IMG/VR virus record: IMGVR_UViG_3300029554_000001
Origin: a virus
Reading direction: 5' to 3' (one strand)
Length of the DNA stretch: 64,000 nt
Positions 1 to 64,000 of this stretch are shown here, piece by piece. The translations under genes and the position numbers were made by a program. Numbering within the stretch: the first letter of the stretch is position 1; each line of letters begins with the position of its first letter. The notes beneath the pieces are model-generated. The model worked only from the letters and a program-made list of their open reading frames with translations. It ran no database searches and was not told the origin of the DNA.

Positions 1-190
1 TTCTATAATCCATTTTTCCATATTTTTCAAGTTTAAAACCATGCATCTTTTTCCAGTTATTGCTACAAAATAATAAAGCTTCATCATCAGTAATCTTATC
101 ATTTTGATAAGCAATACTCAACAAACGAACAAAAGGTCTATTATCATCTCTGGCTTTAATCTCAAAATACCTCTTAATAATATTATTCAT
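1..190 (-). CDS. hypothetical protein, truncated by the window edge
   Basis: ATG (rc) at 188-190, open to position 1 (MNNIIKRYFEIKARDD...). Last gene of the leftward module. Confidence 0.35.
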   Translation of the reverse strand, partial: MNNIIKRYFEIKARDDNRPFVRLLSIAYQNDKITDDEALLFCSNNWKKMHGFKLEKYGKMDYR

Positions 191-345
191 AATTTTTTAT
201 ACCTTGTTTTCATTTTATAAACAATTTATCTATAATTTCTTTCTGAATTCAATTCTTTATTTTGCCTATCAAATTACCTATCTTAATTATCCAAATTAAA
301 ATTAGTAAAACAAATATAAACAAATTATTTATAAATTAGCCCAAA

Positions 346-1173
346 TTATTCTTCAGGCATTCTATATACATCATTGTCTCCATCAGTAATAATAACAGGA
401 CAGTCAACCCAATCCATAGTGCCATCACCATTATTTTTATAGCATTTAACATTTACATTCTTAATATCATTAGCGTCTTTAGTACTATTAATATTACCAT
501 CAATTTTATTAGAAATATCATTCATACCAAGATTATTCTTTTCTTTCCCGCTCAAAATCTAACTATTCTTACTCCATTGATTCTTAATCCAATGACCTTC
601 ACTAATAATATTCTGAGCAAACTTGAAACTACGAATCATACACAAATGTTCAGTAATTCTTGTAGAAAGACATTTGCAATTAAAACGAAAATCGTATTCC
701 AAAATTAAATCTTCAATACAGTGTAAATTGGCAAAATCATATTCTTCGTTTTCAAAAGAAGCTATAATCTTATTAGCTTTACTCTTATAAATTTCATAAT
801 CTTTCCAGAAGAACTGAAAATTTTCATCAATATCTTCCCATGTGACATAACAATCTTCTTCAACACCCAAAATTTTCTTACCATCAAAGACAGCTACATC
901 ATTTTCGTGTTCCCTCTTATAACAATCCCATCCAATTCGAATTTCACGAACAGCTTCCAATTTATCACCTTGGTATTTTTCATTCAGATAACCAGCATCT
1001 TGAATATGTTTATCATTTTTAAGATAAACTTTTGCCTGATGAATGATACAATCAAAATCTACACAAAGATTATATCCAATTTCCAAAGCTCTATAAATAT
1101 CTTCCTGAATAGAAATTAATTTATCAAGTTTTTGACATTGCTTAATAACGTAATGCTTTTTAATAATGTTCAT
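346..1173 (-). CDS. hypothetical protein; two track ORFs joined by an in-frame TAG
   Basis: Track ORFs 559..1173 and 346..555 share one frame and are separated only by TAG (rc of 559-561). The joined ORF ends in TAA at 346-348. Confidence 0.5.
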
Positions 1174-1175
1174 TA

Positions 1176-1994
1176 TTACATACCTTCTTCATCACAGTCA
1201 CAACTATCATCATCACTGCATTCATTATTCTTGTACAGCTTAAAACTATCAAAGATATGGTAAATTCTGGCATAATCTCCACCATAGGTATTATCCAAGT
1301 TAAGATTTTCCAACATTTTTTCAAGCGTATCACAAGTAGCATCAATTAATCTAAGCATAGCTAAAGTACAGTTACCATGAATTTCGTTTACAAAGATATC
1401 GGTATAATAAACCTTCTTACCTACTTCTCTGTCATAATTTCCCCAAATATTAGCTGAAATAGTTACATTTTCATTGTGATTCATAAGATTACTTTTAAAA
1501 TTAATAGTAATTGTTGCTTCACGATTAGTTTCACTTTTAGAAGTAAATTTGATATCACAGTAATCCAGAATCAAATGTAATTCTTTTACCCAACAATGTT
1601 CATACAACATGTTAAGATTAGGATATTGTTTTTTCATTTGTTCACAAGTCATTTTATGAAAAGAAATAACTTTTTCTTTATTTTCTTCAATCATATTTTC
1701 AGTCTCACTTTCGATTTTTTTAGATTTCCAATCAAGCTCCCCACAAGAAACCCAATTTTCATATTGCCAATCAATATCACTTATCCAAATGAATTTATAA
1801 TATTTTCCATTATCATCATTTTTAACAACAGCAATATCGCCATTCTCTAATTCATTAGTAGGAATATTATCTAATTGTTTTACATCATGCAATCCATAAT
1901 AATATTTAATTTTTTTGCCAAAGTTGCTTTTTTCAGACATAACTAAATAAGGTTTACCATTAGCTTCGTATTTAGTTTTATTTTCATTTTTCAT
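1176..1994 (-). CDS. hypothetical protein
   Basis: 272-aa ORF tightly packed in the leftward operon; TAA stop. Confidence 0.6.
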   Translation of the reverse strand: MKNENKTKYEANGKPYLVMSEKSNFGKKIKYYYGLHDVKQLDNIPTNELENGDIAVVKNDDNGKYYKFIWISDIDWQYENWVSCGELDWKSKKIESETENMIEENKEKVISFHKMTCEQMKKQYPNLNMLYEHCWVKELHLILDYCDIKFTSKSETNREATITINFKSNLMNHNENVTISANIWGNYDREVGKKVYYTDIFVNEIHGNCTLAMLRLIDATCDTLEKMLENLNLDNTYGGDYARIYHIFDSFKLYKNNECSDDDSCDCDEEGM

Positions 1995-2627
1995 CGGAAT
2001 AAATCCTCTTTACATATAAAATTATTATAAACTTCTTTTGTCAAATCAACTTTTGTTCCATTATTGTCAATAACGTAATCATAAGTAATTCCTGATTTAC
2101 TTACACCATCATCAGCATGATTACCATATTTACTATTTTCATTTAAAACTTTTCTATTGATTTTAATTGTTTTACAATAAATTCCTTTTTTTACAACAAT
2201 ATTCTTTAATCCATGTAATATCTTTATCTTCTCTTGCATGTAAAAACAAAATTTTTCTACCAAAGGTGGTATAATTGTATAATACTGCTTCAATTTTTTC
2301 TTTGAGATATTTATAAGTTACATTATCCCAATAATCAAGCATATCTTTTAATTCACAAAGGAATCGTCTATCCATAGGTCGTTTAGTTTCTTCATCCCAA
2401 CCCATTAAAGAAGCCCACTTTTTAGCAGGAGCAGAAGTATAGTAGTTATGGACTAAACAATGAGGGTCAAAATTATCCATAGCTGTCCAAACTAAATTAC
2501 AAAAAGTGTCTTTACCAGACCCTCCAGAACCATTTATAATATAAACTTTAAAATAAGACATAATTTTTCTCCTTGTAAAATCCACAGATAAAATTTTTAA
2601 GTTGTTATTTATAATGGAAACACCCAA
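1991..2627 (-). CDS. P-loop deoxynucleoside-monophosphate kinase-like protein, reading frame broken at a homopolymer
   Basis: Walker A motif GSGGSGKDT lies in track ORF 2172..2627. The expected C-terminal part (GNHADDGV...YDYVIDNNGT) continues in track ORF 1991..2293. The frames switch at a T7/A7 run at 2186-2192. Confidence 0.55.
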
Positions 2628-2947
2628 TCTTTCGTTAAATGTTTAAGAAAATCTTGTTTTATTATGTTAGAAATAAAATAAGCAATTGTTTTCCAAGCTG
2701 GTTGACTAAGACTATAAACGCAAGGAACAAATAATTCTTCATAAATAAATGATTCATCTAAATGTTCGTGAAAAATCAAATCATTAAGAGTAGGAATCTT
2801 AAAAACAAAAGTAAATCCATCTCCTCTTGTCCAATTACAGTCAATTAAATTGTTAAAACAAAAAAAGGAAGAATCAGAATAATCTTGACTAATATCCTGA
2901 GTTAATTTATCAAAAAGTTCTTCACAAAAATCTAAATAATTCATCAT
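2609..2947 (-). CDS. hypothetical protein
   Basis: 112-aa ORF that overlaps both neighbouring genes. Confidence 0.55.
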   Translation of the reverse strand: MMNYLDFCEELFDKLTQDISQDYSDSSFFCFNNLIDCNWTRGDGFTFVFKIPTLNDLIFHEHLDESFIYEELFVPCVYSLSQPAWKTIAYFISNIIKQDFLKHLTKDWVFPL

Positions 2948-3585
2948 AATTTTATATCTTTCTTAATAACTTCTCTTTTACCATCAAGTCCAACAATAAT
3001 AACATCTTCATTCTTAGTATTAAGAATAACAAAAGGTCTTTGGACACCGCAACAATTCTTTTCAGCAGCTTCAAGAGCAGTAAGAATATGTTGTTCAGGA
3101 GTAAAATCTTTCATATATTTAGTAGTAGCATAAAGACTTCCTTTAGCAGTTACCTCACCACAACCGACAGCAGAATAACCAGTCAAAGGTTCAAGAACAG
3201 AATAATCATTCTGAATTTCATAAAGTTTTCCATCAATACCTACTAAGAAATTACCACCTTTATCTCCATTATCTTTAATACCATTTTCAAAAAGAGTAAT
3301 AATATTAGGAACAAAAGTAGTAACCATATATTCATGATTTACTTTAGTTTCACCAGAAGGAATTTTATATTTATCAATCTCAGGAAATAAAGTTTTACTA
3401 TATTTAAGCAAATCAATATGTCTAAAAGTAGAAGTACTACCCATAACAACATTTTTCAAAGTAGTATTTCTAAATACTTTAGGATTAGATTCGACATCTT
3501 GAGTATAACCATTACTACCAAGGCTATCTGCACCAATCCAAGTGACATTATTTTTCTTATCCGTAAAACCAACGATACAAGTCAT
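2944..3585 (-). CDS. Ntn-hydrolase, proteasome beta / HslV-like protease
   Basis: N-terminus MTCIVG places Thr directly after the initiator Met. Size of 213 aa and the GSTS and GCG segments fit the proteasome-type fold. Confidence 0.45.
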   Translation of the reverse strand: MTCIVGFTDKKNNVTWIGADSLGSNGYTQDVESNPKVFRNTTLKNVVMGSTSTFRHIDLLKYSKTLFPEIDKYKIPSGETKVNHEYMVTTFVPNIITLFENGIKDNGDKGGNFLVGIDGKLYEIQNDYSVLEPLTGYSAVGCGEVTAKGSLYATTKYMKDFTPEQHILTALEAAEKNCCGVQRPFVILNTKNEDVIIVGLDGKREVIKKDIKL

Positions 3586-3604
3586 AATTAATTTTTACCT
3601 CTAT

Positions 3605-4378
3605 TTAAGTATTTTTTAATTTATACAGAGTTTCTTTTTTTACAGTGTTTTTTTCAATCAATCCAAGTTCAATAAGAGCTTCTAAATATTTTCTTAAAGT
3701 AGTAGAAGATAAAGATGTTTTCTGTAATAGAAATTTTAAAGTAATAGCTTCTTTATATTTCCAACCATTAGGAAAAGTTTTGTTTAATGCTTGCCTTCTA
3801 TCAATAAGCATTTTAATTAAAAGATAAGTATTAAGTAAACTATCTACTTTAAGTTTAGATTTTGTTGTTTTATCTTTTAAACAATATTTCATAATTATTA
3901 AATAATCTTTAATACTTAAAGTAGTAAAATTATTAATAATAATTTCATCATAAAGTTCAATAGATAACATATATTGAGGAAATCTTTGATATTGTGTTAA
4001 AAGTTTTTCTTTTTGCAATTCAATATCTTTTTCACAAGTATTTATATCAAATTCACAACAATTAAAGTAATCTCCATATTTAGGAATATCAATAACTGAC
4101 TCAGAGATAATTTCTTTTTTTCTATTAACAATAGTATTTGATAGAAGATATAAAGATGATAGAATTTTACTAATTTTAGAAGCTTTAGTTTTTTGATTTT
4201 CCATGCTATCATCTACATAACATTCTTCTAAAAATAAAATACTACTATTTACTTTTCCAAGCATGTTTCTATTAATGGCTAAAAATAGATATGTTAAAGA
4301 AGTATATGAATTTACTCTGTTAGAAAGTTCTATTATTCCATTAGGAATCTTTACAAACAAAGAATCATATTTGCTCAA
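3605..4378 (-). CDS. hypothetical DNA-binding protein with a winged-helix-like C-terminus
   Basis: 257-aa ORF; the C-terminal TLRKYLEALIELGLIEK resembles a wHTH recognition region. Confidence 0.45.
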   Translation of the reverse strand: MSKYDSLFVKIPNGIIELSNRVNSYTSLTYLFLAINRNMLGKVNSSILFLEECYVDDSMENQKTKASKISKILSSLYLLSNTIVNRKKEIISESVIDIPKYGDYFNCCEFDINTCEKDIELQKEKLLTQYQRFPQYMLSIELYDEIIINNFTTLSIKDYLIIMKYCLKDKTTKSKLKVDSLLNTYLLIKMLIDRRQALNKTFPNGWKYKEAITLKFLLQKTSLSSTTLRKYLEALIELGLIEKNTVKKETLYKLKNT

Positions 4379-4463
4379 AAATATACTCCTACTTTCTTAT
4401 TTTATTTCAAAAGAAGAATACCATAATTATTTTTCCTTGTCAAGTCTTTTGATAAGCTTTTCT

Positions 4464-4760
4464 TTAAATTTTCAAAAATCTTTTAAATATAGAAAAATAA
4501 AGACTAAAGTGCATTGAATGCCAAGCCTTGATAAAGGCGCAGGCATATTGTCTTTCTTTGTTATATATAGAGTCTATATTAGAGTACCCCATAAAGGACG
4601 ATAATTTTTCCCTTAAATTCTCTATATTCTGGAGCATTTTACAATCGTCAAGAAATGTATGAGTAGTTTTAACATTTCCGTAAGATGCGTAAAATTTTGT
4701 ATGAGTAAAATTGACATTTTTAATTTTGAATATTTCTTCTGATGAAAGTATAACATACAA
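4464..4760 (-). CDS. doubtful ORF overlapping the leftward promoter
   Basis: 98-aa track ORF whose start codon overlaps the predicted -10 element. It may be a leader or regulatory region instead. Confidence 0.2.
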   Translation of the reverse strand: MYVILSSEEIFKIKNVNFTHTKFYASYGNVKTTHTFLDDCKMLQNIENLREKLSSFMGYSNIDSIYNKERQYACAFIKAWHSMHFSLYFSIFKRFLKI

Positions 4761-4776
4761 AACATAGAAAAGTCAA
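4747..4776 (-). promoter_or_regulatory. sigma70-type promoter for the leftward module
   Basis: On the minus strand: TTGACT, 18-nt spacer, TGtTATACT (extended -10). Confidence 0.45.
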
Positions 4777-5726: not shown

Positions 5727-7735
5727 GTGCGTTTATTTTACACCGTTAAGCTTAACAGTGCATTAATTAAAGAAAACGGCTATAATTTAGACATTAGTTT
5801 TCAAGATTGTTTAAAGAGTAATCTAATTGTTTCTTTAGCAGATAGTCAAATGCTAAAGAGTATTCGTGATATAACTGGTTAGAAGATTGATAGAGTCCAG
5901 CTTGAGGAATGGTACTCTGAAAGAGATAAATTAAAAAAAGGAAAAAACAGCAAAAATAATAGGGATAGAATTAAAGAGCTACAAAGAAAAATCTATAACA
6001 TGATGTTTATACCACAGTATATTACTGTAAGCATGGAAAATGTTAAATCTTATCGAGATATCTATGAAAATGGTTTTTCTTTTACTATTGATTGTGGAGA
6101 GCCTATTATTAAAACTGTTAAAAATAAAGATGGTTTAAATGAAGACATAGTTATCGGTTACGAGAAAGTAACGTATCATTATAAACGTTTATCTTGTTCA
6201 GCATCTCAAGCACGAGTAAGCACAGTAGTTTTTTGTGAAGAAACTATTTTGTCAGAATTAAAGAGAAGGCTTGATAATGGACGTAATATGGATGATTACA
6301 AAATCGCCCCTAGTAAGTATAATGCATATTTTGGTTTATATTCGAGTGCAATAAAAGAAGTTACCAAACCAAGATTTTGTATAATTCCAGATTATTCAGA
6401 AGTAAGACCTGTTGATGTTGATTTTGTGATTGAACAACCAGCAGACCAAGATGATATTGTCGAAGAAAGAACAGTAGACGTTGAATTTAATATGGTCGAT
6501 GGTTCTGGTTTAATTAGTCCTCAAATGGCTGAACAATGGGGAAAAGACCTTGAAGAAGATTATACTCCTTGTCAATTTTGTATCCGCTGTGCTTTCACAA
6601 AAGGGGCTGTAAATGAATTTGATTTTGTTGACTGGTGTAAAGAACTTAACAACGAGAATTATTTAATTAAAGATGTTTACGGCAACTATGTAGATGTAAG
6701 AAATATTGATGTTATTCTTACAGAAGGTATGGCAAAACTTTGGAGTGCTTGGGGTTCTCAAGAAAGTTTTGAAGAAAATTGTCAAAAGAATGGTATCATT
6801 TGGGGAGTAACCAAATATGCTCCTAAACAAGACAAAGAAGTAAATACAGCAAATTATCAATTTTTGCAAACTTTAAATCTTACGCCAGAAATGGTAAAAG
6901 ATGTTTGTAAACTAACAGTTGATTATATTCAAGGTGTAAGTTATGATAATATTTATTACACTTTATTATTCCTTCTTGGCGAAAATTTGACTCAAGATAA
7001 TATTGAAAATTATATGAAATCAAGCGATAATTATTGGTTAAAGTCTCTTGTTTTAAATAATTCTTTGTTATATGATAAATATTCTAAAGAAAAAGTAAGA
7101 GATTTTATTATTAGAAAAATTGAACTTGCTTGTCTTGGAAAAATTATGGTTCATGGTAATTTTCAATGTATTGTAGTTGATGGGTATGCTTTTATGCAAG
7201 CTGCTACTGGTCAAAAAGTAACTGGTTTGTTAAATGCAGGAGAAATGTATTCGCAATTTTGGAATAAGAGAAATGTTACTAAAGTAGACACAATGCGTAG
7301 CCCACTCACTCATTTTAGCGAGCACTACCCTGTTGAATTAAAGAATACAGAAGAAATGAAAAAGTGGTACAAGTACAGTTATAGTGGAGTAATTGTTAAT
7401 TGCCACGATGCACATACAATGCATTGGGCAGGAAGTGACTATGACTATGACATTATATTTACTTGCGATAATCCAAATTTTATTAATGGTGTTTATCCAG
7501 ACCAAAGAGTAGTAACTTACAATGCTAAAAAACCTCACAAAAAGCCAGCGAGAGAAATGACTGATTTGGATTTGTATAATACTGATACATTCAGTTTTGG
7601 TACAAGAATTGGTCAAATTACCAATATTTGTTCTACATTTGTTGGTATGTTACCTTTGTTTGAAAAAGGTAGTAAAGAAGAAAAATTGTTGCAAGATAGA
7701 GTTAGGTCGTGTTGTGCGGCTCAATCGAGACAGAT
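5727..7735 (+). CDS. single-subunit RNA polymerase of the RdRP/YonO type, exon 1
   Basis: GTG start after the RBS GAAGGAAGG; in-frame TAG at 5880-5882. TMRSPLTHFSEH ... HWAGSDYDYDIIF matches the RNPxLHPGD ... DxDGD catalytic pattern of eukaryotic-type RdRPs and YonO. Confidence 0.6.
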
Positions 7736-8928
7736 TAATTAAATAGTCTGGCTATTTGGTAACAAATAGAAAAATTTACATGGTGAACCTATAAATATAG
7801 GGTGTCATTCTCACTTTTGGAATTATAGGAAATGATAATTAAGAGAATGGCTAACAGGGGAAGCCTAAGTTGTTTAATATGGTAATCCTGTGGTAGAAGA
7901 ATTGTTTAATTATAAAAGAAAGGAGGAAATTCAATGGGTGGATGGAATTTTATTGATAGAACTGGAATGACCTTTGGAAAATTAAAAGTACAAAAGTATT
8001 TAGGGAATAAAAAGTGGTTGTGTCACTGTGAGTGTGGAAATGATTGTATTGTTAATTCAGATAATCTTCCCATTAACGGCAAAAGAAGAATGACAAAATC
8101 TTGTGGCTGTTTGAAAGAAAGTCGCCTAATAAAGAATTTAGATTTCTTTGATGTTATTGATACTGAAGAAAAGGCTTATATTTTAGGATTTTTAGCCTCG
8201 GATGGGTGTGTTACTTATAATGAAGAAACAAAATCTTATTATATAAAAGTAGTTGTTAATTCAATTGATAGAGATTTACTAATACAATTCAAAAAAGCTT
8301 TTGGAACAAAAGCAGAAGTGAAAATTTTTAAAACATTTACACACTTACCCCAAGGTGGCGAATGTGAATCTGAAATGAGTAGTTTGTTATTATGCAGTAA
8401 GCATTTAACTAAACAATTAATAAAATATGGAGTAACACCAAAGAAAAGTTTAACTCTTGATATTGATTATTCTCTTGTTCCAGATAATTTAAAGAGACAC
8501 TTTTGGAGAGGCTTGTTTGATGGTGACGGAACTTTTGGGCTTTTTGGTAAGAAAAAACTTTTAGAGGTTAGTTTGACTACATCAAAAAATATGGCTGAAC
8601 ATACAAAAGAAGAAATCCTTAAGTTTTTTCCAGAAAGTAAAATTGGATGTTATTTAAGAAAAGAATGTTCTGGTAACACTTACAACATGATTTTCACTAC
8701 TCAAAAAGATGGGTTAAATTTTTTATCTTATATGTATGAAAATAGTAATATAAGATTAGAAAGAAAATATCAAAAATATTTAGAAATTAAAAACAATTCT
8801 TAAACTCAAACGACTATCCCGAGAGGGAGTACATTTAAGGTGAAATTCCTTATTTGGAAGTGCCATGCTCCTTGTTTACAAGGATGAAGATATAGTCTAG
8901 CCCTTTAAGGAAACTAAAGGTAGTAGCG
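7736..8928 (+). mobile_element. group I intron with a LAGLIDADG ORF inside the RNA polymerase gene
   Basis: P1: exon CAGAT (7731-7735) pairs with GTCTG (7746-7750), giving a U-G pair at the splice site. The core CTCAAACGACTATC ... GAGTAC ... GATATAGTCT follows the ORF. Splicing after G8928 restores the frame (...AAQSRQI-DKTKIGENVK...). Confidence 0.7.
7934..8803 (+). CDS. LAGLIDADG homing endonuclease, intron-encoded
   Basis: Two LAGLIDADG motifs (ILGFLASDGCV and WRGLFDGDGTF); own RBS AAAGGAGG. Confidence 0.85.
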   Translation: MGGWNFIDRTGMTFGKLKVQKYLGNKKWLCHCECGNDCIVNSDNLPINGKRRMTKSCGCLKESRLIKNLDFFDVIDTEEKAYILGFLASDGCVTYNEETKSYYIKVVVNSIDRDLLIQFKKAFGTKAEVKIFKTFTHLPQGGECESEMSSLLLCSKHLTKQLIKYGVTPKKSLTLDIDYSLVPDNLKRHFWRGLFDGDGTFGLFGKKKLLEVSLTTSKNMAEHTKEEILKFFPESKIGCYLRKECSGNTYNMIFTTQKDGLNFLSYMYENSNIRLERKYQKYLEIKNNS

Positions 8929-9835
8929 AGATAAAACCAAGATTGGCGAAAATGTTAAAGCAGAAGCAACAATTTGGAAACAATATCAACATATAAATCC
9001 AGAAGATTCTCCAGAAGAAATTAAAAGGAAAGAATTTCTTAATTCTCTCTTAGCTGATAAAAAGCCTTATTTTTTCCGATACAAATATAACACTTTAAGT
9101 AAAGAATACAATGAATTTGTTAAGAAAAACGACCAAGATTGCCAGCTTAGATTTGCTTGCTCTTTAAAAGAGTTGTTAGCTAAAGATGAGAATTTATTAA
9201 ATGAAAGTCAAAAAGAATTTATTAGATATTATAAACATTTTCTTCCTGTGGTTGATTCTAATTGTGTGATGAATCAAATTTGTAAATATATTGAAAATGT
9301 TGATTTCCATATTAGAGAAAAAGTACGTTCTTCTCAAAACTTTGATTATCATACTTTAATGTCTGATGGTTTTGTAATTAATAAAAAGATATATGAACAA
9401 ATTAACGATTTAGTATCAAGTAGAATTAAGGAATGGGCAGCTAAAAGAACAGAAAAAGTTCTTGACGGAGCATTTGCAAGTAAGACAGTAAATCCAAGCA
9501 AGGTTCTTGATAGAGATTTAGAATATAATATTTTAAGACAAGATTTATTAACTAATATTTGTTCTAATGAAGAACAATTAGCAAACCATTTAATATATTT
9601 ATTTTATGTAGATAAACAGTCTTATAACAAGAATATTCTTTGGGCTTTAGTTGGAAGACAAATATACGAGAATATAAGAAAAAAGACCTCTGTTTATTAT
9701 TTTCCTCAAAAGAATCCTAATGGTTCTTTAGAGTTTTTATATGAGAAGTATTCTATTGAAAGAGTGCTTGTAAGTCATGAAGAGGAAATTGAAGAAGAGG
9801 AAAAAGGTATAAAGGAGGAATCTTTTTATGATTGA
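8929..9835 (+). CDS. RdRP/YonO-type RNA polymerase, exon 2
   Basis: Open upstream of track ORF 9173..9835 back to the proposed 3' splice site; TGA stop. Confidence 0.55.
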
Positions 9836-10862
9836 CATTTATGATGAAGAGGGTTATATTCAGGAAGTTCTTTAGAATGGTTTTTCTCAAAAATGGTAGA
9901 GAGATGCTGCTTTATTGGTAAAGTATTTTAAAACAGAATATGCACTTGGAAATTAGCCTTCTTGGAATAAAGAATGGGTTAAAGAAACGATTAAAGAAAA
10001 GTGTAAAAAGTATGTACCAACTTATGACCCTAATGTAACTTTTAATAGAGTTAATAAGTTGGTAGATACAACTTGGAAGAATTGGAAAGTTGACCCTGAT
10101 AACCTAAAAGAATCATCTTAGCTTAGGAAAATAAAAGAGATAAAAATTCCCGAAGCGGTATTGAACTGGTTTTTAAATCTTGATACATATTATATAACAG
10201 ACGAAGAAGTAAAAGATATTAAATCAAGGCGTAAGAATGTTAGTGTAAAGAATCACCCAATTACAATGGCACGAGCTAAATATTTATTTACTTTATATGT
10301 ATGGACAAAAATTTAGGAAAACTATTTAAGTAGACCTAATATACATTATCTTGAGAAATATAATAAGAAGTTAAGAAATGATGCTGATTTAAAGCCAAGT
10401 TTTTCTCTCACGAAAGAAAGAAACGTATTATTTGATTTAGGATTCATAGATATAAATCATGGACTTGGAGTAACTCCTATATTTATGGACAAAGAGGATT
10501 TCAAAGAAGCGGAGAAAGATGAAAAGGTAATTTTATTGGGTCGGAATGACCTCTATTTGTGCGGAAAATGGCTTGAAATGAGGAAATTCGGAACTTTTAA
10601 GTGTCAAAAATGTCGGAAATTATTGCCACGTTCGGCAAATAAAAGAGGTTAGCCAAGAAAATATTGTGAAGAATGTGCAAAATCTTTGAAAACACATACT
10701 AACGAAAAATATTATTGCATTAATTGTGGAAAAGAAATTGAACATAATAGTGTAACATAGAGAATTCATAAACGTTGCGCAACTTGTCAAGACCTTTATC
10801 GTAAAATGAAAGACAGGGAAAGAAAAAGAAATTTGGAAAATTCCACAAATAAGGCGATTTAA
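9828..10862 (+). CDS. hypothetical Cys-rich (zinc-ribbon) protein with 7 in-frame TAG codons
   Basis: Its ATG overlaps the polymerase stop (ATGATTGA). A 344-codon frame has no TAA or TGA. C-terminal CxxC pairs are present (CQKCRK, CEEC, CINCG, CATCQ). The gene is invisible in the standard-code track. Confidence 0.6.
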
Positions 10863-24738: not shown

Positions 24739-24742
24739 TACA

Positions 24743-42548: not shown

Positions 42549-42572
42549 TTAAAAAAGGAGGATAACTTTATT

Positions 42573-46725: not shown

Positions 46726-46744
46726 ACAAATAAGGAGGGTTTAA

Positions 46745-47452: not shown

Positions 47453-47454
47453 AG

Positions 47455-53833: not shown

Positions 53834-55282
53834 ATGAGTAAAAGCAAAGACAAGATTAGAGTAAGTTTTAAAAATTCTGGAGCGGCAGAAGATGTAACAG
53901 GTTCTTGTACTGTTATTACATGGGGAAAGCCAGAACGAACAATTCTTGTCGATTGTGGATTGGTACAAGGTAATCAAAGTCTTTTGAAAGAATATCAGGC
54001 TAATAGTGCAAGATTTACATTTAAAGAGAAGAATGTAGATTATGTATTTGTGACCCATTCGCATGTTGACCATTCAGGTCGTTTAAGCCTTTTAACCAAA
54101 AGAGGATTTGATGGAAAAATTATTGTGCCTGATGGTAATAAAGATTTAATTCGAGAATTGCAATTAGATAGTGCTAAGATTATGTTAAGAGATGTTGAAG
54201 ATTTGTCTCGAAAACTTAAAAGGGAATATTCTCCGATTTATGAAGAATCTGATGTAAAAGATATGCTTACTCATATTGAAGAATATCCTTTTAAGGAAAG
54301 AATTAAATTAGACGATGATGTAACATTTGAGTTTATTCCTTCTGGACATATTGTTGGTGCTGCTCAATTGATTCTATATATCAAAAATGGTAGTGTTACC
54401 CGTAAAATAGCGTTTACTGGTGATTTAGGTAATATTAGAACCGAAACTTATTATGCAAATAAGTTTGAACCTATTCAAAATGCAAATTTGTTAGTGGGTG
54501 AATCTACTTATGCCAGCAAAGAAAAAAGTGCTAAAGCAAAAGATAGAGAAAAAGATTTAGAAAAGATTAAAACTTTTGTGTATGATGTTTGTATTGATGG
54601 AAAAGGAAAGTTACTTTTTCCTTCTTTCTCTTTAATGAGAAGTCAAGTAATTTTAACCATTCTTTACGAAATGTTTAAAGATGACGAGAATTTTAATATT
54701 CCTGTTTATGTTGGCTCTCCTTTAACTTGTAAAATTAATAAAATTTTTAATGAAATTTTAGAGGGTGAGCAACTTAAGAGATGGATTGAAGCTTCTTCAT
54801 GGGATAAGGTTAAATTTATCAATAATTATGAAGAGATTGAGCAAATTTTAGTAAAGCCTGACCCAGCAATTTTTATTTCTAGTGCAGGAATGCTTAACGC
54901 TGGTTTTGCTGTAGGTATTGCTGAAAAGCTCCTTCCAAGTGCTAAGAATGGAATTGCATTTATTGGGTATTCTGTTGAAGGGTCTTTGGCTTGGAAAATT
55001 AAACAAAAGAAGACTAAGACCGTTGCCATTAATGGAAAACAAATCCTGAGTCGTTGTAGAGTAATTAACTTAAATAGTTTTTCAAGTCACATGCAAAGAG
55101 ATGAGCTTTGCGATTATTACAGCGGTGGTCTTGGAACTAGCGGTTATGGTAAAGTTGTCCTTCAACATGGTAATATGAAAGATAGAGTTGAACTGAGTAA
55201 AACTTTATCGGAGCTTATTAGTAAAAGAAATAGAACAGACAAAGTTGTTGTAGCTAATAAATCAACAGAAATTTTATTGTAA
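53834..55282 (+). CDS. metallo-beta-lactamase-fold / beta-CASP nuclease (RNase J / CPSF / SNM1-like)
   Basis: HSHVDHSG (HxHxDH) motif; 482 aa; C-terminal SSH...motif region; no TAG codons. Confidence 0.75.
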   Translation: MSKSKDKIRVSFKNSGAAEDVTGSCTVITWGKPERTILVDCGLVQGNQSLLKEYQANSARFTFKEKNVDYVFVTHSHVDHSGRLSLLTKRGFDGKIIVPDGNKDLIRELQLDSAKIMLRDVEDLSRKLKREYSPIYEESDVKDMLTHIEEYPFKERIKLDDDVTFEFIPSGHIVGAAQLILYIKNGSVTRKIAFTGDLGNIRTETYYANKFEPIQNANLLVGESTYASKEKSAKAKDREKDLEKIKTFVYDVCIDGKGKLLFPSFSLMRSQVILTILYEMFKDDENFNIPVYVGSPLTCKINKIFNEILEGEQLKRWIEASSWDKVKFINNYEEIEQILVKPDPAIFISSAGMLNAGFAVGIAEKLLPSAKNGIAFIGYSVEGSLAWKIKQKKTKTVAINGKQILSRCRVINLNSFSSHMQRDELCDYYSGGLGTSGYGKVVLQHGNMKDRVELSKTLSELISKRNRTDKVVVANKSTEILL

Positions 55283-55319: not shown

Positions 55320-55818
55320 AATAAACCTATTGACACAAGAGGTCAGGGTTGCCAGAGAAGTTGTATATTGGGCTACCATCCAGTGATGCAATGGAGGCTT
55401 ATTAGGGTTGTCAGGTTTCCACAGGGTAGCAATTAAAACTGTCCGACCAACATACTTTCATGCGTGGTTTCAAACGGAAGAGAAAGGCGTTTTAAGGTGT
55501 CGGCATAAACCTTATCATCTTATATACCATGTTGTATATTTAGACCAGCTACGAGGCATAGTCTTGCAGCTTTTTAATGTGGTGTCCATGAGCACAGGAT
55601 AAGGACTTAAAGAAGACCAAATTTACGGGTTCGTAAAACGGGTCTGAGCCATATATCTCATGTACCATGTGTACAAGGAGTTCCTTAAGACGTTAGAGTT
55701 TAGCTTTAGCGTTTTATGCAATGAAAAAGGTGAGACAGGGAGTAGCTACCTTTTGTTTTGCCCCAACAAAACAATTATCATCTTTTTCATTTTTAATTAA
55801 GACTTGGGGGTTTTAGTT
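55320..55818 (+). ncRNA. candidate large structured noncoding RNA, family not recognised
   Basis: About 500 nt with no credible ORF and visibly more G+C than the surroundings. Nested hairpins include AGACC-AAAT-TTACG-GGTT-CGTAA-AACG-GGTCT, GTCCGACC...GGTGTCGG, GCTACC...GGTAGC, AAAAGGT...ACCTTTT and GTTTTG-CCCCAA-CAAAAC. Confidence 0.4.
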
Positions 55819-57069
55819 ATGGGAATACAAGAATTTAATACTGAAACAAAGTTAACTTGTGCGTAGATTAGAGATGGGGAAACTCTATTTTATTCTAAAA
55901 AGACAGGTAATAGAAAACCTATTATATGGGGAGTATATTTTATTAGAAATATGCAAAATAATAAGGTTTATGTAGGTTCCTCCAATGATATAGTTAGAAG
56001 ATGGAAAAACCATTGTAGTGATTTAATTTATTAGAATCATATAAATAAGCATCTATCTGCGGCATGGTTAAAATATGGGCAAGATAGTTTTGTTTTTGAA
56101 TTAAAAGAAATTTATGAACCAAATGATAAATTTGATAAAAAAGAAAATTTAGATTGTCTTCGTAAAAGAGAACAGTATTATATAAATTTATATGATACTA
56201 GTAATAATAAAAAGGGGTATAATGAAAGCAATTTAGCGACAAATCCTTCTATTAATGTTACTGAAAAACTCCTTAATGGAGAACGAGCAATATCTCCGTA
56301 GCAGTTTTACAAAGTTGTTGATTTACTTTTGAATTCTGAGTTGAATTTAAGAGAAATTTCAGATGAAACTGGAGTAAAATATACTACTGTTAAAGATATA
56401 TATTAGAAAAGAGAGTATAAAGAATTATTAACTGGTTATAATTTTCCTGTAAGAAGTAATGATAAAACTGATAAGTTAAAGCGAGAGCATTGGAATGATA
56501 TAATGAATTTATATAATTTGGGAATGCCCGCTGAACAAATCAGCAGAGAAATTAATTGTGGAATTAGCGTGCTAAAAAATCTTTTAAGAAAAGAGGGTAT
56601 TCCGTTTGGTGTGAATAAGCCTCGTTATTTTATTTTTGATTTATATGGTAATTTAATTGGAAGTTATTTTAGTTCTTCTGACGCTGGAAAATTAATTGGA
56701 TAGAAAAGTTAGACTATTGTATCAGCGGCAAATCATGGTTGTTTGGTTGATAAAAAATATAAAATTTCAAAAAATCCAGAACCACCATCTTTCACTGAAA
56801 CAGAAAAAATATTTGGTCATTATATTTCATCTTTTGGGAAAAGTATCATTGCTGTTGCTTATAAAAATGGTAAGCCAGACAAGGTTTATAACGGCATAAG
56901 ACCAACTTTTTCAGATAAAGATGCAGAAAAAATTATAGATGCTTTAAAACAAAATAGCAATGAAGAAATTTTTGGTTATACTTGGAAACGTCTTGAAGAT
57001 GTTCCCGATTTAGACAAATAGATTTTAATGAATAAAAATTTAAAGGTTAAAAAAGGTGTTTTAAAATGA
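55819..57069 (+). CDS. free-standing GIY-YIG homing endonuclease with C-terminal DNA-binding modules
   Basis: GVYFIRN..NKVYVGSSNDIVRRW..H...YGYN-like core. Track ORFs 56503 and 56743 are in frame. About 7 in-frame TAGs. The TGA overlaps the ClpP-like ATG. Confidence 0.65.
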
Positions 57070-57725
57070 GTACTGACAAGTGCAAGAACGATAGTTTGTC
57101 AAATTTAGTTGAACTTATTGATATTGAACCAGAAGGTAATCTTTAGCTTCCAACTCCCTCTCTTCTGCAATATTATTTAGACAGAAAAGAAAGAGTTATT
57201 TGGATTGATAAAGACATTGATGATGATTTGTTTAATGAAATTAGACAAATTATTCAGTATAATAGAGAAGATGAAAAAAATAACATTCCCGTAGAAAACC
57301 GTAAAATTTGTAAAATAATGCTTTAGTCTTATGGAGGAACTTTGGATTCTTGCTTTGCTTTGCTGGATGTAATGAAGATTTCTAAAACTCCTATTTATAC
57401 TTATAATTTAAATGCTTGTATGAGTGCAGCAGCATTAATTTATCTGAATGGACATAAGCGTTTTGCAATGCCAAAATCTACTGTTCTTATTCATGCTGGT
57501 CAGGGAGGTAGCGTTGGTCGGTATGATGCTGTGTTGGCGCAAACAGAAAATTATAAGAGATTAATGGATATGCTTAAAGAAAATGTGCTTGAACATACCA
57601 AAATTGGAAAAGCTTTCTTAAATAAGCAGATGAAGAAAGAATGGTATATTTACATTGATGACCAGATTAAGTATGGAATCACTGATGAAATCATTACTGA
57701 CATTACTCAGATTGTAGGAGAATAA
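57066..57725 (+). CDS. ClpP-family serine protease-like protein
   Basis: ...SYGGTLDS..., NACMSAAALI (Ser) and VLIHAGQGG (His) match the ClpP pattern. Two in-frame TAGs. Confidence 0.6.
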
Positions 57726-57727: not shown

Positions 57728-59038
57728 ATGGCTTTAGTTACAGATAAAGTACCCGAAGGTTATCTTCGTGAAATGCGTCAATTAATGATGGATATTTCAA
57801 ATGGTGACGCAACTTGGAGTAATGCAAACGATATTCGTAAAAAGTACGGTTTGCCTTCTCTGACTATTGATACAATTCGTAGAGGTGCGCTGCTTTATTC
57901 TGAATTTAATGCTTCAGGATGGGTTAACGAACCTGTTAATAAAAATATTCCTACTAAGAATACTACTACTTTAGATAGGAACGGTGTGAGAACGAGTGAG
58001 AAATTCGTAGCTTTGTCAGAAGATGAGCTTACGGATAAAACTGCTCTTTTAAAAGCACATGGTTATAATCCCGTTCAGTTTGAATTGCTTAATGCTAAGA
58101 ATAGTATTTGGCAACAAGGTGATGGCAAAGGTGGTTTGAAGAATCTTTATTCTTCTCGTATTACTGTAAAGCCTACCGATTGTGGCTTGGATTTAGAAGA
58201 GCTAAGAAAATATTTCGAAGGTTTTAAATCTCCTCGTAAGACAGAACATATTAGAGGAGATATTAGCAACAAACCTAATGTAGTTTTCTTCAGTCATCTT
58301 GATGTACATTTTGGTAGAATTTCTCAGCCTTATGAAACAGGAGTTGAGTATAATATGGAAATTGCAAGATAGAATATGCTTTCTACCACTAAGAAGATGA
58401 TTGATTCTGTTCATTGGAATAATGTGGGAAAGATTATTTATATGGTTGGTAACGATTATCTTAACAGTAGCTTTACTGGTTACACAACAAGTCAATCTCA
58501 CATGCAGGATAACGAAGGAACTTTTAATACTATCTTCAAAAAAGGCACAGAAGCTTTGATTGAAGTTATAGATATGCTTAGTAGAGTGGCGCAAGTAGAA
58601 GTTGTATTTGTTTCTCGGAATCACTCTCGATTTGAAGAATTTGCGTTAATGCAGATAATTGAAGCGTATTATAAAAATGTAGAAGAAATTAAAGTTGATG
58701 CAAGTCCTTTCCCAAGAAAATATATTAGAGTTGGCAAGACTCTTCTTGGTTTGACTCATGGTAGTGATGAAAAAGACCGTATTAATGGTTTGATGCAGAC
58801 CGAAGCTAAAGAAGATTGGGGGCAGACATCTTATCATTATTGGTTGTGTGGTCATTTACATCACAATGATTGGGCTTTAAGAGAAAATTATGGTGTTTCT
58901 ATTTTCATTCTTTCCGCCATGACAAAGATGGATAATTGGACTACAAAGAGTGGATATACTATGGCTGATGCTGGATGCATTGCTTTTGTTTTTGATTATG
59001 ATAAAGGACTTAGTGATATTAAGTTCTATTATGTTTAA
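57728..59038 (+). CDS. calcineurin-like metallophosphoesterase with an N-terminal extension
   Basis: Motif I (HLDVHFG) lies before, and motifs GNDY, SRNHS and CGHLHH after, an in-frame TAG at 58370-58372 that joins track ORFs 57728..58372 and 58376..59038. Confidence 0.7.
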
Positions 59039-59058: not shown

Positions 59059-59283
59059 ATGGGTAAGAAAAATAAAAATTAGGCTTTTGATTAGTACAGA
59101 GATGATGAATCTGAGGAGAGAAAGCCGTCTAAGAAAAAATAGATAGTGAAGAAGAAAAAAGAAGAAGAGATTTTTGAATTCGAAGAGGATTACGAAAAGA
59201 CTCGAAACAGAAATAGATATGAAAACCGTAAAAAGAAAAAGAAGCATTATGAAGATAATGACTACTATGACGGTTGGAATTAA
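59059..59283 (+). CDS. small highly charged (K/E/R-rich) protein
   Basis: 74 codons, three in-frame TAGs, TAA stop. Confidence 0.35.
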
Positions 59284-59429: not shown

Positions 59430-59966
59430 ATGAATAAAGGAAAAGCTTTTGAAAAGGATTTTCAAGAAGCGGCTAAGAATGATGAGCTGTTTGTGTTAAG
59501 GTTACATGATACTTCTTTATCTTGGCAGCATGAAAAAACTTCAAGGTTTCAACCTGAGAACCCCTGTGATTTTTTGGTATATGAACTTCCCAATTTATTT
59601 GCTATTGAGTGTAAAAGCACTTGTTATAAATCTTTGACTATACAGAGAGATATAAAAGATAAAGCTTCTAAGATGATTAAAGCTCATTAGATTAACAGTC
59701 TGGTGAAATTTGCTCAATAGGAGGGGGTATTTGCTGGTTTTTTATTTAATTTTAGAGATGATGAAGACATTTCAAATAATGTAACTTACTGGTTATCTAT
59801 ATAGAATTTTAGTAAATTTTTATGTGAAAATGATAAACAATCCATTAATAAATTAGATTGTATTCAATATGGAGCAATTATAATTGAACAAAAAATAAAG
59901 AGAACTCATTATACTTATAATATAAAGAAAATGCTTGAAGATATTAGAAAGGAGGAAATTAAATAA
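59430..59966 (+). CDS. RecU-like PD-(D/E)xK Holliday-junction resolvase
   Basis: ...PCDFLVYE...LFAIECKS... nuclease motif. Three in-frame TAGs extend track ORF 59430..59690. Confidence 0.6.
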
Positions 59967-60946
59967 TGTATAATAAAATTTTTGATGAAGAAAAGTGGAA
60001 ACAAGTAAATTAGGAAAATAAAACCATTATGGAAGATTTTCTTCTTGAATACAAAGCGAGAAAAATGAAAGATTCTACTTTGAAATAGTATAAAAATGAT
60101 TGCAGAATTATTCTTTTGTTTGTATTAGATAATTGTGGTAATAGACCCCTCACAGAATTAAGAAAGAAAGATTTTCGTAATTTAAGTTTGTGGTTAAGTG
60201 ATACTTTAGGGGTATCTAATGCTCGTACTAATAGATTGATGTCATGTTGTCGCTCAATGCTTACATATGTTGAAGAAGATGATGATTATGATTATGATAA
60301 TAATTTAGCAGCTAAAGTAAAAGGTCTTCCCAAGGAACATGTAAGAGATATTGTTTTTTTAGATGATAGTGTTATTTTAGAACTTGTTGATAAGTTAATG
60401 GAAAAGAAAGATTACAAGAAAGCTACATTAGTTGCTTTACTTTACGATTGTGGTTCTCGTAAAAATGAAATTGCGCAAGTCGAAAAAGAAAGTTTTTACG
60501 ATGAAAGCAAAAATCTTACTAACAAACTGATTGGAAAGCGTGGCAAAATTTATAGGGCAGTTTATCATTCTTTAACTAAGAAATGCGTCAAGAAATATTT
60601 AGAAGAGCGTGGAGAAGATGATGTAAAAGAACTGTTTATTACAGAGGGTGGTTTCCCTGCAAGGGCAGAGGTACTTTATGATTGGATTATTTCTTTAAGA
60701 CCAATAGTTGAGGAAATTACTGGTAAGCCTTCAAATCTCAACGTTCATACGTTTCGCCATAGCTTTATTCAGAATTTATCGGATGGAACGCATTATTTAT
60801 GTAGGGAATAGAATTTAGGTAAAGTACCTCTTGATAAAATTAAATTATTAGTGAATCATTCTGATATTTCCACTACAGATTCTTATAGAAAAGATACCAG
60901 TCTTGAAGAGATTGGTGAACTGTTTGGAATTGACATGGATGAATAA
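59966..60946 (+). CDS. tyrosine recombinase / integrase
   Basis: N-terminal SAM-like STLK-TAG-YKNDCRI; catalytic HTFRHSF and ...NHSDISTTDSY. Three in-frame TAGs. TAATG overlap with the RecU-like gene. Confidence 0.75.
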
Positions 60947-61693: not shown

Positions 61694-61744
61694 GCCACAT
61701 TAAATTGTGGTTCTCTAGCTAGAGATACATATTATATATCTAAA

Positions 61745-61772
61745 AGAGGGAAGTAAAACGCTTCCCTCTTTA
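61745..61772 (+). terminator. hairpin / weak terminator
   Basis: AGAGGGAAG-TAAAACG-CTTCCCTCT followed by TTTAAT. Confidence 0.5.
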
Positions 61773-61796
61773 ATAGTTTAAAGAAAGGAAAAGAAT

Positions 61797-62438
61797 ATGA
61801 GTGATTTATCAAATACAGTTTCAAAAGCATTTGAAGATGCTTGTAAAGAAATTGTAAAGAAAATAGAAAAACAAATGCCTCAAAGAATGGCAACTATTAA
61901 GAATGAAGTTTCTTTTGAATATATGTCTTTAGTCAAAAATGTTTTTGAAAGTGTTTTTGATAATTATTACGGGGACAATTATGATAAAGATAGTTTAATG
62001 GATTCTTTGTTTTTTGTTCCGAGTACAAAAAATTTGTGGCCTGATTTAACTTATAATAAAAACAAATTAAAATTTTTAAAGCCTATAGAAAAAGAAAAGA
62101 AAGCATTTAATAAAAATGCAGTAAGAGAATCTACAATAAAACAATTTGGCGATACAGATTTAGTTTTTGATATGGCTACAACTTTATTTAATGAGGCAGA
62201 ATTCGAAGAGGATTTTGCGGGTTTTGATTCATTATCTTAGTGGGATGAAGTGCAAGAATTAACATTCGATTTTTGGAATATGACAAGAGCAAATAATAAT
62301 AGAAACAATTTAAGTCTTTCTCCTATTGAAGAGACTTATAAAATAGCTTATACACGAAGTCAACGAGAATTTGAAAAGCGTTTTAATAAATAGATTAAAC
62401 CGAAAATGCTACAAAAATATGGTATTAAATTAGGATAA
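61797..62438 (+). CDS. hypothetical protein
   Basis: Track ORF 61797..62240 extends through two TAGs to TAA at 62436-62438. Confidence 0.5.
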
Positions 62439-62452
62439 GGAGGAGATTGAAA

Positions 62453-64000
62453 ATGGCTCAAAATCAATACGAAGTAGAAATAAAGCTTGGCTTGGACAAA
62501 AGTACTTAGCTTTTAGACCGAGAAATTGAGAAAATAGATAAAACACTTACTGATAAAATGAGTAAGTTGAATAAACAATTTGAAGAATCTATCAAAGGAT
62601 AGAATTTAACTGCACAAGAAAGATTCGCAAGAAGGTCAGATTTCTTACAAAAAAACAATAGTTCTACTTAGTCTTTACAGTCACAAAAAGAGACTCTTCT
62701 TAGTAAAAAAGCCCAAATTTCTAAAATGTCTGGTGAAATTTCCAATATTGGAAGTGTAAATAGTCAATTTGACACTATTGGAAAATATTTAGCCGAAAGA
62801 GTTGATTTTATTAAACAATTAGATTCTTGGATTGGGCAATATACTAAACAAATCACAGAATTTAAGCCTGTTATTGTTGCTGCCGAGCAACAAAAAGCCT
62901 ATCAACAAAAAATAAAGAAAGAAAGAGAAAAAGCAGCGAAAACAGGCAAAGTAGACTATAAAGCTGAAACCATGGCAAAAAGGAATTTAACTGAGGAATA
63001 GTATAATAAAGAAATTGATGCCATGAGTAAATATTATGAAGCTAACGCAAAAACTAATTAGGCGGAAGAAGATAAAATTACTCGACAGAAAGAGGCTCGT
63101 TTTGCTGAGGAAATGAAAAGGATTGTAACTTAGCAAAAGAAATCTAAAATGTCGGATACGGAGTTTGAGAAACGCCGTCCACAGATAGAAAAAGATGTCA
63201 AAGCATATGTAGATAAGACTCATGCTGGTGGCATAAAAACTTTAGCTGGTTCTGATAAATGGGGTCGAAAAATAGAAGTTAGAGGCTTCCAAGAAGGTTT
63301 TGTAAAAGATTCAGATGACCACTATGTTGATGCTAAAGGCCGTGTTGTAAAAGGTACTGACACTTCTGTTTTAAGAACTACTGCATTTGCTCCTTTTATT
63401 AATAAAGAAGGTGAGTATGTTTCCGCGACTAATTCTGAAGGGCGGCTTAAAAAGTCTATTAGAGTTTATGACCCACGTTTAGCAAATATAGGAAATGTTG
63501 GACAGGTTGGAGATTTAAGAAACCAAACCTATACAGGAATAGAAAATGCATATAATTCTTTGTTGAATCAGCTTAAGATTTTAGAAAGTGGTGGAAAACA
63601 AGGAACTGAGGAATACCAAAAGATTTCTCAACTAGCTTCTTTGATTCCTGAAGTGATTAAAGATGCTTATGCCAATACTTCTTCCAAGGAAATTAAAGCT
63701 GCTTTTGAAGAAGCTTTAACTGGAATGAAAAGTGGTATTACCTCTCTTGAATCTGAGGAGTCCTCGATTGGAGGAGCTTTATATAAAAATAGTGAACTTA
63801 GCGGTGTTTTAAGAGAGCAATTAAAATTAAAAGGTAAAGTATCTAAGATTCAACGGTGGGAAGTGGGGGAGTTACCTGAAATTCCCACACAAGATAAAAC
63901 TGATAGAACAGATGAAAAGCAAATAAAGAGAGACCAAATTAGTGCTAAACAGCAAGAAGTTATTGACCAAAAACATAAAGATGAACTTTGGCATTCAATA
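62453..64000 (+). CDS. large coiled-coil protein (possible tape measure), runs off the window
   Basis: RBS AAGGAGGAG. The frame is open to position 64000 once about 6 TAGs are read as sense. The sequence is K/E/Q-rich. Confidence 0.55.

Follow-up and report, generated by a model that had tools for sequence, protein, structure and literature searches.

The 64,000-nucleotide stretch of viral DNA taken from IMG/VR record IMGVR_UViG_3300029554_000001 (the window, by which we mean the whole stretch at its full length) raises the question of whether the triplet TAG, which lies in frame within many of its genes, terminates translation or is read as an amino acid, and in the second case as which one. 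An earlier note, made from the letters of the window, had proposed that TAG is a sense codon for glutamine. Four independent lines of evidence support this proposal, namely the continuity of the open reading frames (ORFs), the codon substitutions, relatives that use the standard code and a tRNA with the anticodon CUA in relatives. The window is very probably part of a human-gut phage genome of about 215 kb. This phage is distantly related to the SPbeta-like phages of Firmicutes and very probably uses genetic code 15. Under this code, which the evidence supports here, TAA and TGA terminate translation and TAG is translated as glutamine.

TAG in the coding frame

Calling the genes again with translation table 15 in place of table 11, which had been proposed as a check, raised the ORF cover of the window from 73% to 89-92%. 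When the cover was computed with greedily chosen, non-overlapping ORFs of at least 80 amino acids it went from 73.1% with table 11 to 88.8% with TAG as sense, and was 75.3% with TGA as sense. Strand-aware models gave 83 ORFs and a cover of 92%, and the number of ORFs of at least 300 amino acids increased from 10 to 26 when TAG was taken as sense. Reading TAA as sense was also tried and was rejected: its cover of 88.9% matches that of TAG, but the 239 ORFs of at least 100 amino acids that then result overlap one another, and homology gives this reading no support. This gain arises because TAA ends 65 of 81 genes, so that reading through it fuses neighbours.

The models contain 131 in-frame TAGs, which are found in 47 of the 83 ORFs (57% of genes recoded; 45 of 75 when models of at least 70 amino acids are counted), and TAG makes up 19% of all TAG, CAA and CAG codons. 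The figure given previously was about 40 TAG-containing genes. It had also been stated that every gene model ends in TAA or TGA, and this is so (65 and 16, respectively), but the way in which the models are built dictates it. Within the models TAG is the only stop-type triplet in the coding frame (131), and all three triplets occur in frame +1 (555 TAA, 320 TGA and 327 TAG) and in frame +2 (1247, 1083 and 355).

The ORF that starts at 62453 is called as a tape-measure protein of 3,861 amino acids in a contig from ENA which matches the window, and its first 3,080 codons in that contig include 27 TAG, 0 TAA and 0 TGA. Gene calling with the standard code breaks this gene into more than 15 pieces. 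More than half of the genes of this phage are misannotated when the standard code is applied, and gene callers need code 15.

The amino acid inserted at TAG

The ORFs of the window, with X at each TAG, were compared with related phage contigs from IMG/VR and ENA (the loci obtained are numbered with the prefix L). In the two nearest relatives, five of the six changes that involve TAG are exchanges between TAG and CAG or CAA. Among the non-TAG codons that face the TAGs of the window in 31 loci, CAA (173) and CAG (60) lead, followed by AAA, GAA and AAG, and in the reverse direction the TAGs of the relatives face glutamine 75 times, lysine 24 times and glutamate 19 times. With each site counted once, the residues opposite TAG (glutamine 37%, lysine 11%, glutamate 8%) have nearly the same profile as those opposite genuine glutamine codons (51%, 11% and 7%). 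The log-likelihood of the identity of TAG is best for glutamine (-197.6), the next best being lysine (-263.1) and then glutamate (-272.1), so that glutamine is ahead by 65 natural-log units over lysine and by 74 over glutamate. The tabulation of residues opposite TAG that the earlier note had suggested favours glutamine, with CAA and CAG dominating.

In four of the related loci (L026, L027, L030 and L031) nothing is gained when TAG is read through, which shows that they use the standard code. In these relatives glutamine is present at 7 of 23 aligned TAG sites, within conserved motifs, and the remaining sites carry K, E, R, N, H, T, S, M or L. The terminase motif KYTKII-X-WGRANP faces KYCKIIQWGRRHP in a standard-code relative, EMNSLI-X-IDLTKE likewise faces EMDSLIQMDLMKE, and the portal motif GFGSKQ-X-FTIAFN faces GFGSKQQFIVSFN. 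In weakly recoded relatives three of the four TAG sites of the 547-amino-acid protein encoded at 13844-15487 have CAA or CAG. In the protein encoded at 9828-10862, TAG represents 62% of the glutamine-type codons in relatives, and it faces Q, E, R and H in standard-code relatives. Among 120 homologues of the GIY-YIG endonucleases from a large protein database, glutamine is one of the top three residues at three of five TAG positions.

Paralogues within the window place TAG opposite glutamine as well, namely MSV-Q/TAG-V, L-Q/TAG-S and SAQFDAF against ST-TAG-FDAF, the last from the alignment of STASSAQFDAF in the tail-fibre gene S1 with STATST-TAG-FDAF in S2 (30361-30690, minus strand). The earlier claims on the fourth codon of the MSVQV cassettes and on the S1/S2 pair were confirmed in this way, and all the coordinates attached to them are correct (CAA at 26878-26880 and 29339-29341; TAG on the reverse complement of 31463-31465, 32160-32162 and 30484-30486), as is that of the TAG at 58370-58372. 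The site STLK-TAG-YKND of the integrase, which had been put forward as a position typically occupied by glutamine, was not borne out, because XerC and XerD carry N and A there.

The suppressor tRNA

No tRNA was found in the window, nor with ARAGORN (which worked on control loci) in the first 100 related loci, and an Rfam scan at gathering thresholds of 123 kb of walked loci returned nothing. The family genomes were followed outward from both ends of the window with two-ended protein queries in six steps, five via IMG/VR contigs and one via metagenome contigs, and a tRNA was first met at the last step; the GIY-YIG paralogues, used as a route into the rest of the genome, led to unrelated phages. 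The tRNA cluster of the relatives extends over about 15 kb and starts about 4 kb after a gene encoding a PARP-like protein, and its members include Leu-UAA, Pro-UGG, Arg-CCU, Val-UAC, Ser-GCU, Ile-GAU and Glu-UUC. A tRNA(CUA) is placed at the far end of the cluster, directly after tRNA-Arg(UCU) and about 9.75 kb upstream of a radical-SAM gene, and it has the same place in three contigs (L194, L195 and L200) that belong to two sublineages of relatives. A search for a CUA-anticodon tRNA, as the earlier note had advised, is therefore positive in relatives and negative in the window. L194 is 100% identical to L165 across an overlap of 10,360 bases, and L045 has about 88% DNA identity to the genome of the window within the 4.7 kb of left-arm sequence that can be aligned. 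L165 (ENA) and L045 (IMG/VR contig 3300045988_165951) were treated as one genome, and this is what links L194 to the figure of 88%.

The CUA tRNAs of L194 and L200 differ by compensatory stem changes and have kept U1.U72, G73, G2-C71 and the CUCUAA anticodon loop. The U1.U72 mismatch and G73 also occur in the CUA tRNA of a much more distant phage (L151), and all three molecules have in addition G2-C71, G10 and U35, the 3-70 pair being A-U or C-G and not G-C. The identity set recognised by GlnRS consists of an unpaired or weak 1-72 pair, G73, G2-C71, G3-C70, G10 and U35, and supE is the classical CUA suppressor inserting glutamine. The phage tRNA resembles the supE (glnV) tRNA-Gln(CUA) of E. 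coli in the CUA anticodon, in a weak or absent 1-72 pair with U1, in G73, in G2-C71 and in G10. It differs from it in its overall sequence, which is unrelated, in A3-U70 or C3-G70 instead of G3-C70, and in the non-canonical T-loop of one copy. Judging from these nucleotides, the tRNA(CUA) is probably charged with glutamine. In a Firmicute host without GlnRS, glutamine would arrive via the GluRS/GatCAB route. When the suppressor tRNA was compared with all the other tRNAs fetched, no close relative was found.

Gene-specific use of TAG

The use of TAG differs strongly between genes. The genes of the HU-like protein, the invertase, the block 21912-25428, the head module, the tail tube and the beta-CASP protein are free of TAG. 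The left arm is nearly so, with one TAG (at 559) among 31 glutamine-type codons, and its orthologues in relatives are also TAG-poor. The head module has no TAG among 51 glutamine codons, which has a probability of about 2e-5 (0.81^51, from the window counts). The genes rich in TAG are 9828-10862 (7), exon 1 of the terminase, all three GIY-YIG endonucleases and 49718-50695 (7), to which the tail-fibre cassettes, the lysis genes, the portal, the recombinase (3) and the tape measure are to be added; in some endonuclease and small genes TAG accounts for 50-100% of the glutamine-type codons. Inserted in the capsid gene, itself TAG-free, is an endonuclease gene with 4 TAGs. This division into TAG-free and TAG-rich genes recurs gene by gene in relatives. 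The TAG-free abundant proteins also favour CAG over CAA. The Ala/Thr/Gly-rich protein of 559 amino acids in the TAG-free block (22903-24582, plus strand), which has no database match, uses CAG 9 times and CAA once, and the strand opposite to it carries a spurious ORF of 567 codons.

The members of the family form a graded series from the standard code to heavy recoding. In weakly recoded members (L009, L018, L022-L025) the ORF cover goes from 85% to 89% with TAG as sense, and in standard-code members (L026-L027) it is about 92% without any gain. Such a series is useful for studying the onset of recoding.

We suggest a mechanism in which the phage tRNA(CUA) would compete with host release factor 1. 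The early genes, being in the standard code, could be translated by the unmodified host, and the genes for packaging, portal, tail fibres, tape measure, lysis, homing endonucleases and recombinase would give a full-length product only after the suppressor tRNA accumulates. The most abundant virion proteins (scaffold-like protein, capsid and tail tube) would have come to avoid TAG altogether, which fits an incomplete and costly suppression. It is a tentative suggestion, and one that we hold as rather doubtful, that TAG acts as a graded translational throttle and not as a plain early/late switch, the highest-copy virion genes and the early genes being TAG-free and the low-copy or dangerous genes being loaded with TAG, at up to 50-100% of their glutamine-type codons. 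The loaded genes would be those of the homing endonucleases that sit in introns of TAG-free genes, of lysis, of the tail fibres, of the tape measure and of a recombinase. If this were true, a weak suppressor tRNA would set the stoichiometry and timing of the TAG-loaded proteins, and the selfish endonucleases would be silent until late. The conservation of the pattern makes suppression efficiency testable as a regulator of gene expression.

Alternative readings of TAG

A standard gene caller does report table 11 fragments in this family, for example in L037, as would be expected if the in-frame TAGs were true stops and the genes were pseudogenes, assembly errors or fragments joined by chance. 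The chance of this is negligible, since the frames are interrupted by TAG alone and never by TAA or TGA, and the frame statistics already refute it. Moreover, identical TAG positions recur in many independent assemblies from different samples, termination would break the essential terminase, portal, tape-measure and endolysin genes, and Pfam and PHROG domains extend across the TAGs; in the tyrosine recombinase PF00589 covers residues 132-311 and spans the TAG at residue 282. If TAG is sense, it is improbable that it specifies lysine, glutamate, asparagine or pyrrolysine instead of glutamine. Lysine and glutamate do rank second and third in frequency opposite TAG, and the TAG at 57324 in the ClpP-like gene coincides in an alignment with PDB entries with the conserved Asn of INSPGG in canonical ClpP, but the likelihood, the exchange of TAG with CAA or CAG in five of the six recent substitutions and the filling of conserved-motif positions by glutamine in standard-code relatives argue for glutamine. 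The PDB alignments were too sparse to tabulate, and those of the amidase stop short of its TAG sites. ARAGORN does label the CUA tRNA 'tRNA-Pyl', a name that it prints for any CUA anticodon. In tRNA-Pyl a single base separates the acceptor stem from the D stem and G18G19 is lacking, whereas the tRNA found here has two bases at that place and G18G19, and no pyl genes were seen. That the host itself reads TAG as sense, the phage merely following its code, is more improbable still: nothing direct favours it, and the sole hint to the host is the binning of a phage contig in the metagenome-assembled genome 'uncultured Clostridium sp. UMGS1616'. Against it stand the avoidance of TAG in the early genes and in those of the most abundant virion proteins, the tRNA(CUA) that the phage family itself encodes and the standard code of close relatives; moreover, no bacterium is known to read TAG as glutamine.

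Several points weigh against the reading of TAG as glutamine by means of a phage suppressor. Residues other than Q, among them K, E and N, occupy many of the aligned sites in the relatives, to which the Asn of ClpP mentioned above can be added. The tRNA(CUA) is missing from the window and was seen in relatives and not in the window's own genome, of which the corresponding stretch is not covered, and the tRNA region of the family genome was read apart from some 9 kb in its interior. The charging with glutamine is deduced from a few nucleotides of the acceptor end, and the L194 copy has the T-loop UCGGCAC instead of UUCGAAU. A motif search of the family loci, which amount to about 85% of the family genome, detected neither a release factor (GGQ) nor a class I synthetase (KMSKS), both of which had been named as genes to look for. 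The early/late view, for its part, rests on gene content: the early arm is nearly TAG-free and the lysis, packaging, tail-fibre and tape-measure genes are recoded, yet the capsid, scaffold-like and tail-tube genes are TAG-free. A further reading, to which we give slightly less than an even chance, is that TAG has a double meaning, being a stop early in infection (or always in part) and only partly read as glutamine, its main role being the throttling or timing of genes. It agrees with the strong and conserved gene specificity, that is, with the difference between the head module (0 of 51) or the early arm (1 of 31) and the endonuclease and small genes in which TAG predominates, and with the TAG content of the endonuclease inserted in the capsid gene; the same has been proposed for other clades by Borges et al. 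(10.1101/2021.08.26.457843). It also depends on gene content, however, and the avoidance of TAG could be ordinary codon bias, as the same genes prefer CAG over CAA. It refines the reading of TAG as glutamine under code 15 rather than competing with it.

Introns and homing endonucleases

The earlier statement that domains such as those of the terminase and portal are split only by TAG does not hold, as mobile introns bearing homing endonucleases also interrupt these two genes and that of the major capsid protein. The terminase gene consists of three exons and the portal and capsid genes of two each, separated by insertions of 1.0-1.4 kb with GIY-YIG or other endonucleases. Each of these insertions is precisely absent in a relative (43705-45153 in L001, 37145-38471 in L002, 16012-17061 in L003 and 17415-18579 in L006/L007), and therefore the four of them are mobile and polymorphic. 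The YonO-like polymerase gene is also interrupted by an endonuclease-carrying insertion of 1.0-1.4 kb. The 16-mer GTTGCGAAAGCAGAAA is common to three of the introns, and Rfam confirms a group I intron at 51556-51867 only.

The radical-SAM gene downstream of the tRNA cluster contains an intein (PT-HINT/Intein_splicing) in some relatives (L174 117-2485; L193 10001-12321), where it is accompanied by a TAG-rich endonuclease-like ORF; in L194 it is an uninterrupted gene of 320 amino acids.

Tail fibres and invertase

At least seven tail-fibre tip cassettes, starting with MSVQV, VSVQV or MSVEV, are found on both strands beside a serine invertase gene. This arrangement looks like a host-range switch of the Mu Gin or P1 Cin type with many alternatives. 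No clear crossover repeat for the invertase was found among the cassettes.

Gene content and relatives

The features of the window are listed in Table 1. PHROGs and Pfam leave most of its proteins without a name. The nameable products are a YonO/RdRP-type RNA polymerase (PF05183), a HU-like protein, two endolysins, the terminase, the portal, a capsid protein, a YomU-type tail tube (PF27173), a ClpP-like protease, a tyrosine recombinase, a serine invertase and many homing endonucleases. The gene at 57728-59038 had been called a metallophosphoesterase, for which there is no Pfam support: a Pfam search with its product gives nothing at E<=0.01, the identical product of 436 amino acids has no family on record, and the motifs DVH, GND, NH and GHLHH were recognised by eye only.

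Table 1. Features of the window, and CUA tRNA genes of related loci (positions are those of the window unless a locus is named).
Feature	Position	Strand	In-frame TAG	Remarks
Left arm, small and presumably early genes	1-4772	-		HslV-like peptidase at 2944-3585
YonO/RdRP-like RNA polymerase	5727-9835 (pieces 5727-7742, 8918-9835)	+	5880 only	PF05183, phrog_8308
LAGLIDADG/HNH endonuclease	7934-8803		none	between the polymerase pieces
344-amino-acid protein, function unnamed	9828-10862	+	9873, 9897, 9954, 10119, 10314, 10650, 10758	
Endolysin	12795-13568	+	12804, 13458, 13506, 13548	phrog_21357
547-amino-acid protein	13844-15487	+	13892, 14303, 14960, 15329	upstream of terminase
Large terminase	15487-19614 (exons ~15487-16011, 17062-17414, 18580-19614)	+	6	phrog_2, phrog_314, phrog_7168
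Two GIY-YIG homing endonucleases	16408-17055, 17857-18570		5	in the terminase insertions
Tail-fibre-like protein	20456-21895	+	20591, 21851	Mtd_N domain; both TAGs are CAA in relatives
TAG-free block	21912-25428	+	none	includes the Ala/Thr-rich 559-amino-acid protein
Tail-fibre tip cassettes (whole region 26869-33041)	26869-27354, 27460-28449, 28472-29113, S1 29138-29461	+		
Tail-fibre tip cassettes (same region)	29624-30364, S2 30361-30690, 30857-31474, 31503-32171, 32209-32832	-		
Holin-like membrane protein	33149-33490	+	33482	CAG in L002
Amidase endolysin	33512-34555	+	33539, 33677	SH3 repeats; with the holin, lysis cassette 33149-34555
Serine DNA invertase	34613-35320	-	none	phrog_125
Portal	36031-39176 (exons ~36031-37144, 38472-39176)	+	6	phrog_2739
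Homing endonuclease	37593-38462		2	in portal insertion 37145-38471
Head module	40782-47790	+	none outside the endonuclease	phrog_3313 protein 40782-42548; 42573-43100; capsid exons 43209-43704, 45154-45768; 45877-47790
Homing endonuclease	44114-45136		4	in capsid-gene insertion 43705-45153; sole TAGs of the head region
Four genes	47808-51501	+	2, 3, 7, 3	49718-50695 has 7; the last, 50695-51501, is a LAGLIDADG endonuclease
Group I intron	51556-51867	+		Rfam RF00028, 58.4 bits; just upstream of the tail-tube ORF
YomU-type tail tube	52030-52938	+	none	PF27173
Doubtful ORF of 55 amino acids	52968-53135		53070	
ORF	53128-53499	+	none	
Beta-CASP/metallo-beta-lactamase protein	53834-55282	+	none	
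Match to Rfam 'drum' small RNA	55350-55446	+		43.6 bits against a gathering threshold of 43; in the gap between the beta-CASP and GIY-YIG endonuclease genes
GIY-YIG endonuclease	55819-57069	+	7	
ClpP-like protease	57066-57725	+	57144, 57324	
436-amino-acid protein	57728-59038	+	58370	phosphoesterase-like motifs
Two genes	59059-59283, 59430-59966	+	3 each	
Tyrosine recombinase	59966-60946	+	60011, 60086, 60809	
Tape measure, start	62453-64000	+	6 in the window part	runs off the window
tRNA(CUA)	L194/L195 183-257			Rfam tRNA, 45.5 bits; clean cloverleaf; CCA encoded
tRNA(CUA)	L200 399-469			ARAGORN
tRNA(CUA) of a much more distant phage	L151 8942-9032			same acceptor end

IMG/VR and ENA contain human-gut contigs of about 215 kb whose terminases are 52-100% identical and which form one family with the window. 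The human-gut contig k127_15581 of ENA ERZ920262, 215,558 bp long, matches the window at 100% across the 11,994 bases compared. Megablast of 9 kb of the window against the GenBank phage collection gave no match at the DNA level. The host is probably a member of the Firmicutes, and the binning of one family contig with the uncultured Clostridium named above is a weak hint in this respect. Elsewhere in the family genome there are genes encoding an Acb2/Tad1-hairpin protein (an anti-defence family), a PARP-like protein, a NAD-dependent DNA ligase, a NADAR-like protein and a RecJ/DHH protein that is split by another GIY-YIG insertion (L193 1113-1478, L123 19382-20431 and L102 17827-20251, the coordinates being joint for the list).

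Comparison with known phages

The phage shares with the SPbeta-like phages (Bacillus SPbeta, Staphylococcus SPbeta-like, Clostridioides phiCD211-type and Lactococcus 949-type) the YonO/RdRP-type polymerase, the YomU-type tail tube and a very long tape measure, the families PF05183 and PF27173 being matched by products of contigs identical to the window. Its capsid protein is 22-25% identical, over 70-96% of the length, to those of SPbeta-like, phiCD211-like and lactococcal 949-like phages (tblastn). It differs from them in the size of the genome (about 215 kb against about 130 kb), in the recoding of TAG, in the many group I introns and homing endonucleases and in the large tRNA cluster. The kinship is distant and implies no membership of a genus.

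The likeness to the code-15 gut phages that the earlier note pointed out is apt (10.1101/2021.08.26.457843; PMC9523058). Phages in which TAG is reassigned to glutamine include crAss-like phages, Lak phages and the 'Jade' and 'Sapphire' clades of about 200 kb (10.1101/2021.08.26.457843), and for the crAss-like phages there is proteomic proof of the reassignment (PMC9523058). The phenomenon is thus known and has been described, with its mechanism, in other gut phages (10.1101/2021.08.26.457843; PMC9523058); the present case is a further and well-documented instance of code 15 in a large gut phage, and through it the phages with recoded TAG gain a large SPbeta-like member that probably infects Firmicutes. 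As in the code-15 phages, many genes have in-frame TAG while TAA and TGA still act as stops, the GC content is low (32.5% in the window), the family has a tRNA(CUA) and close relatives use the standard code. Recoding is partial in both, with 57% of the genes here and clade means from 26% to 71% in the published phages (10.1101/2021.08.26.457843). Lysis, tail and packaging genes are recoded, the recoded modules are scattered over a genome of about 200 kb, and an intron endonuclease is rich in the recoded codon. The lineage of the window could not be placed in a named code-15 clade, and no release factor 2 gene was found in the part explored.

It has been proposed that recoding gates late and lytic functions (10.1101/2021.08.26.457843). 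The pattern of TAG in this phage fits this idea and sharpens it, and departs from it in two respects. The most abundant structural proteins are unrecoded, the head module and the tail tube being TAG-free here, whereas structural genes are generally recoded in the phages of Borges et al. (10.1101/2021.08.26.457843). The tyrosine recombinase is recoded, with three TAGs, whereas the integrases of the recoded Garnet and Topaz prophages avoid in-frame stops; this recombinase may not be the integrase for lysogeny.

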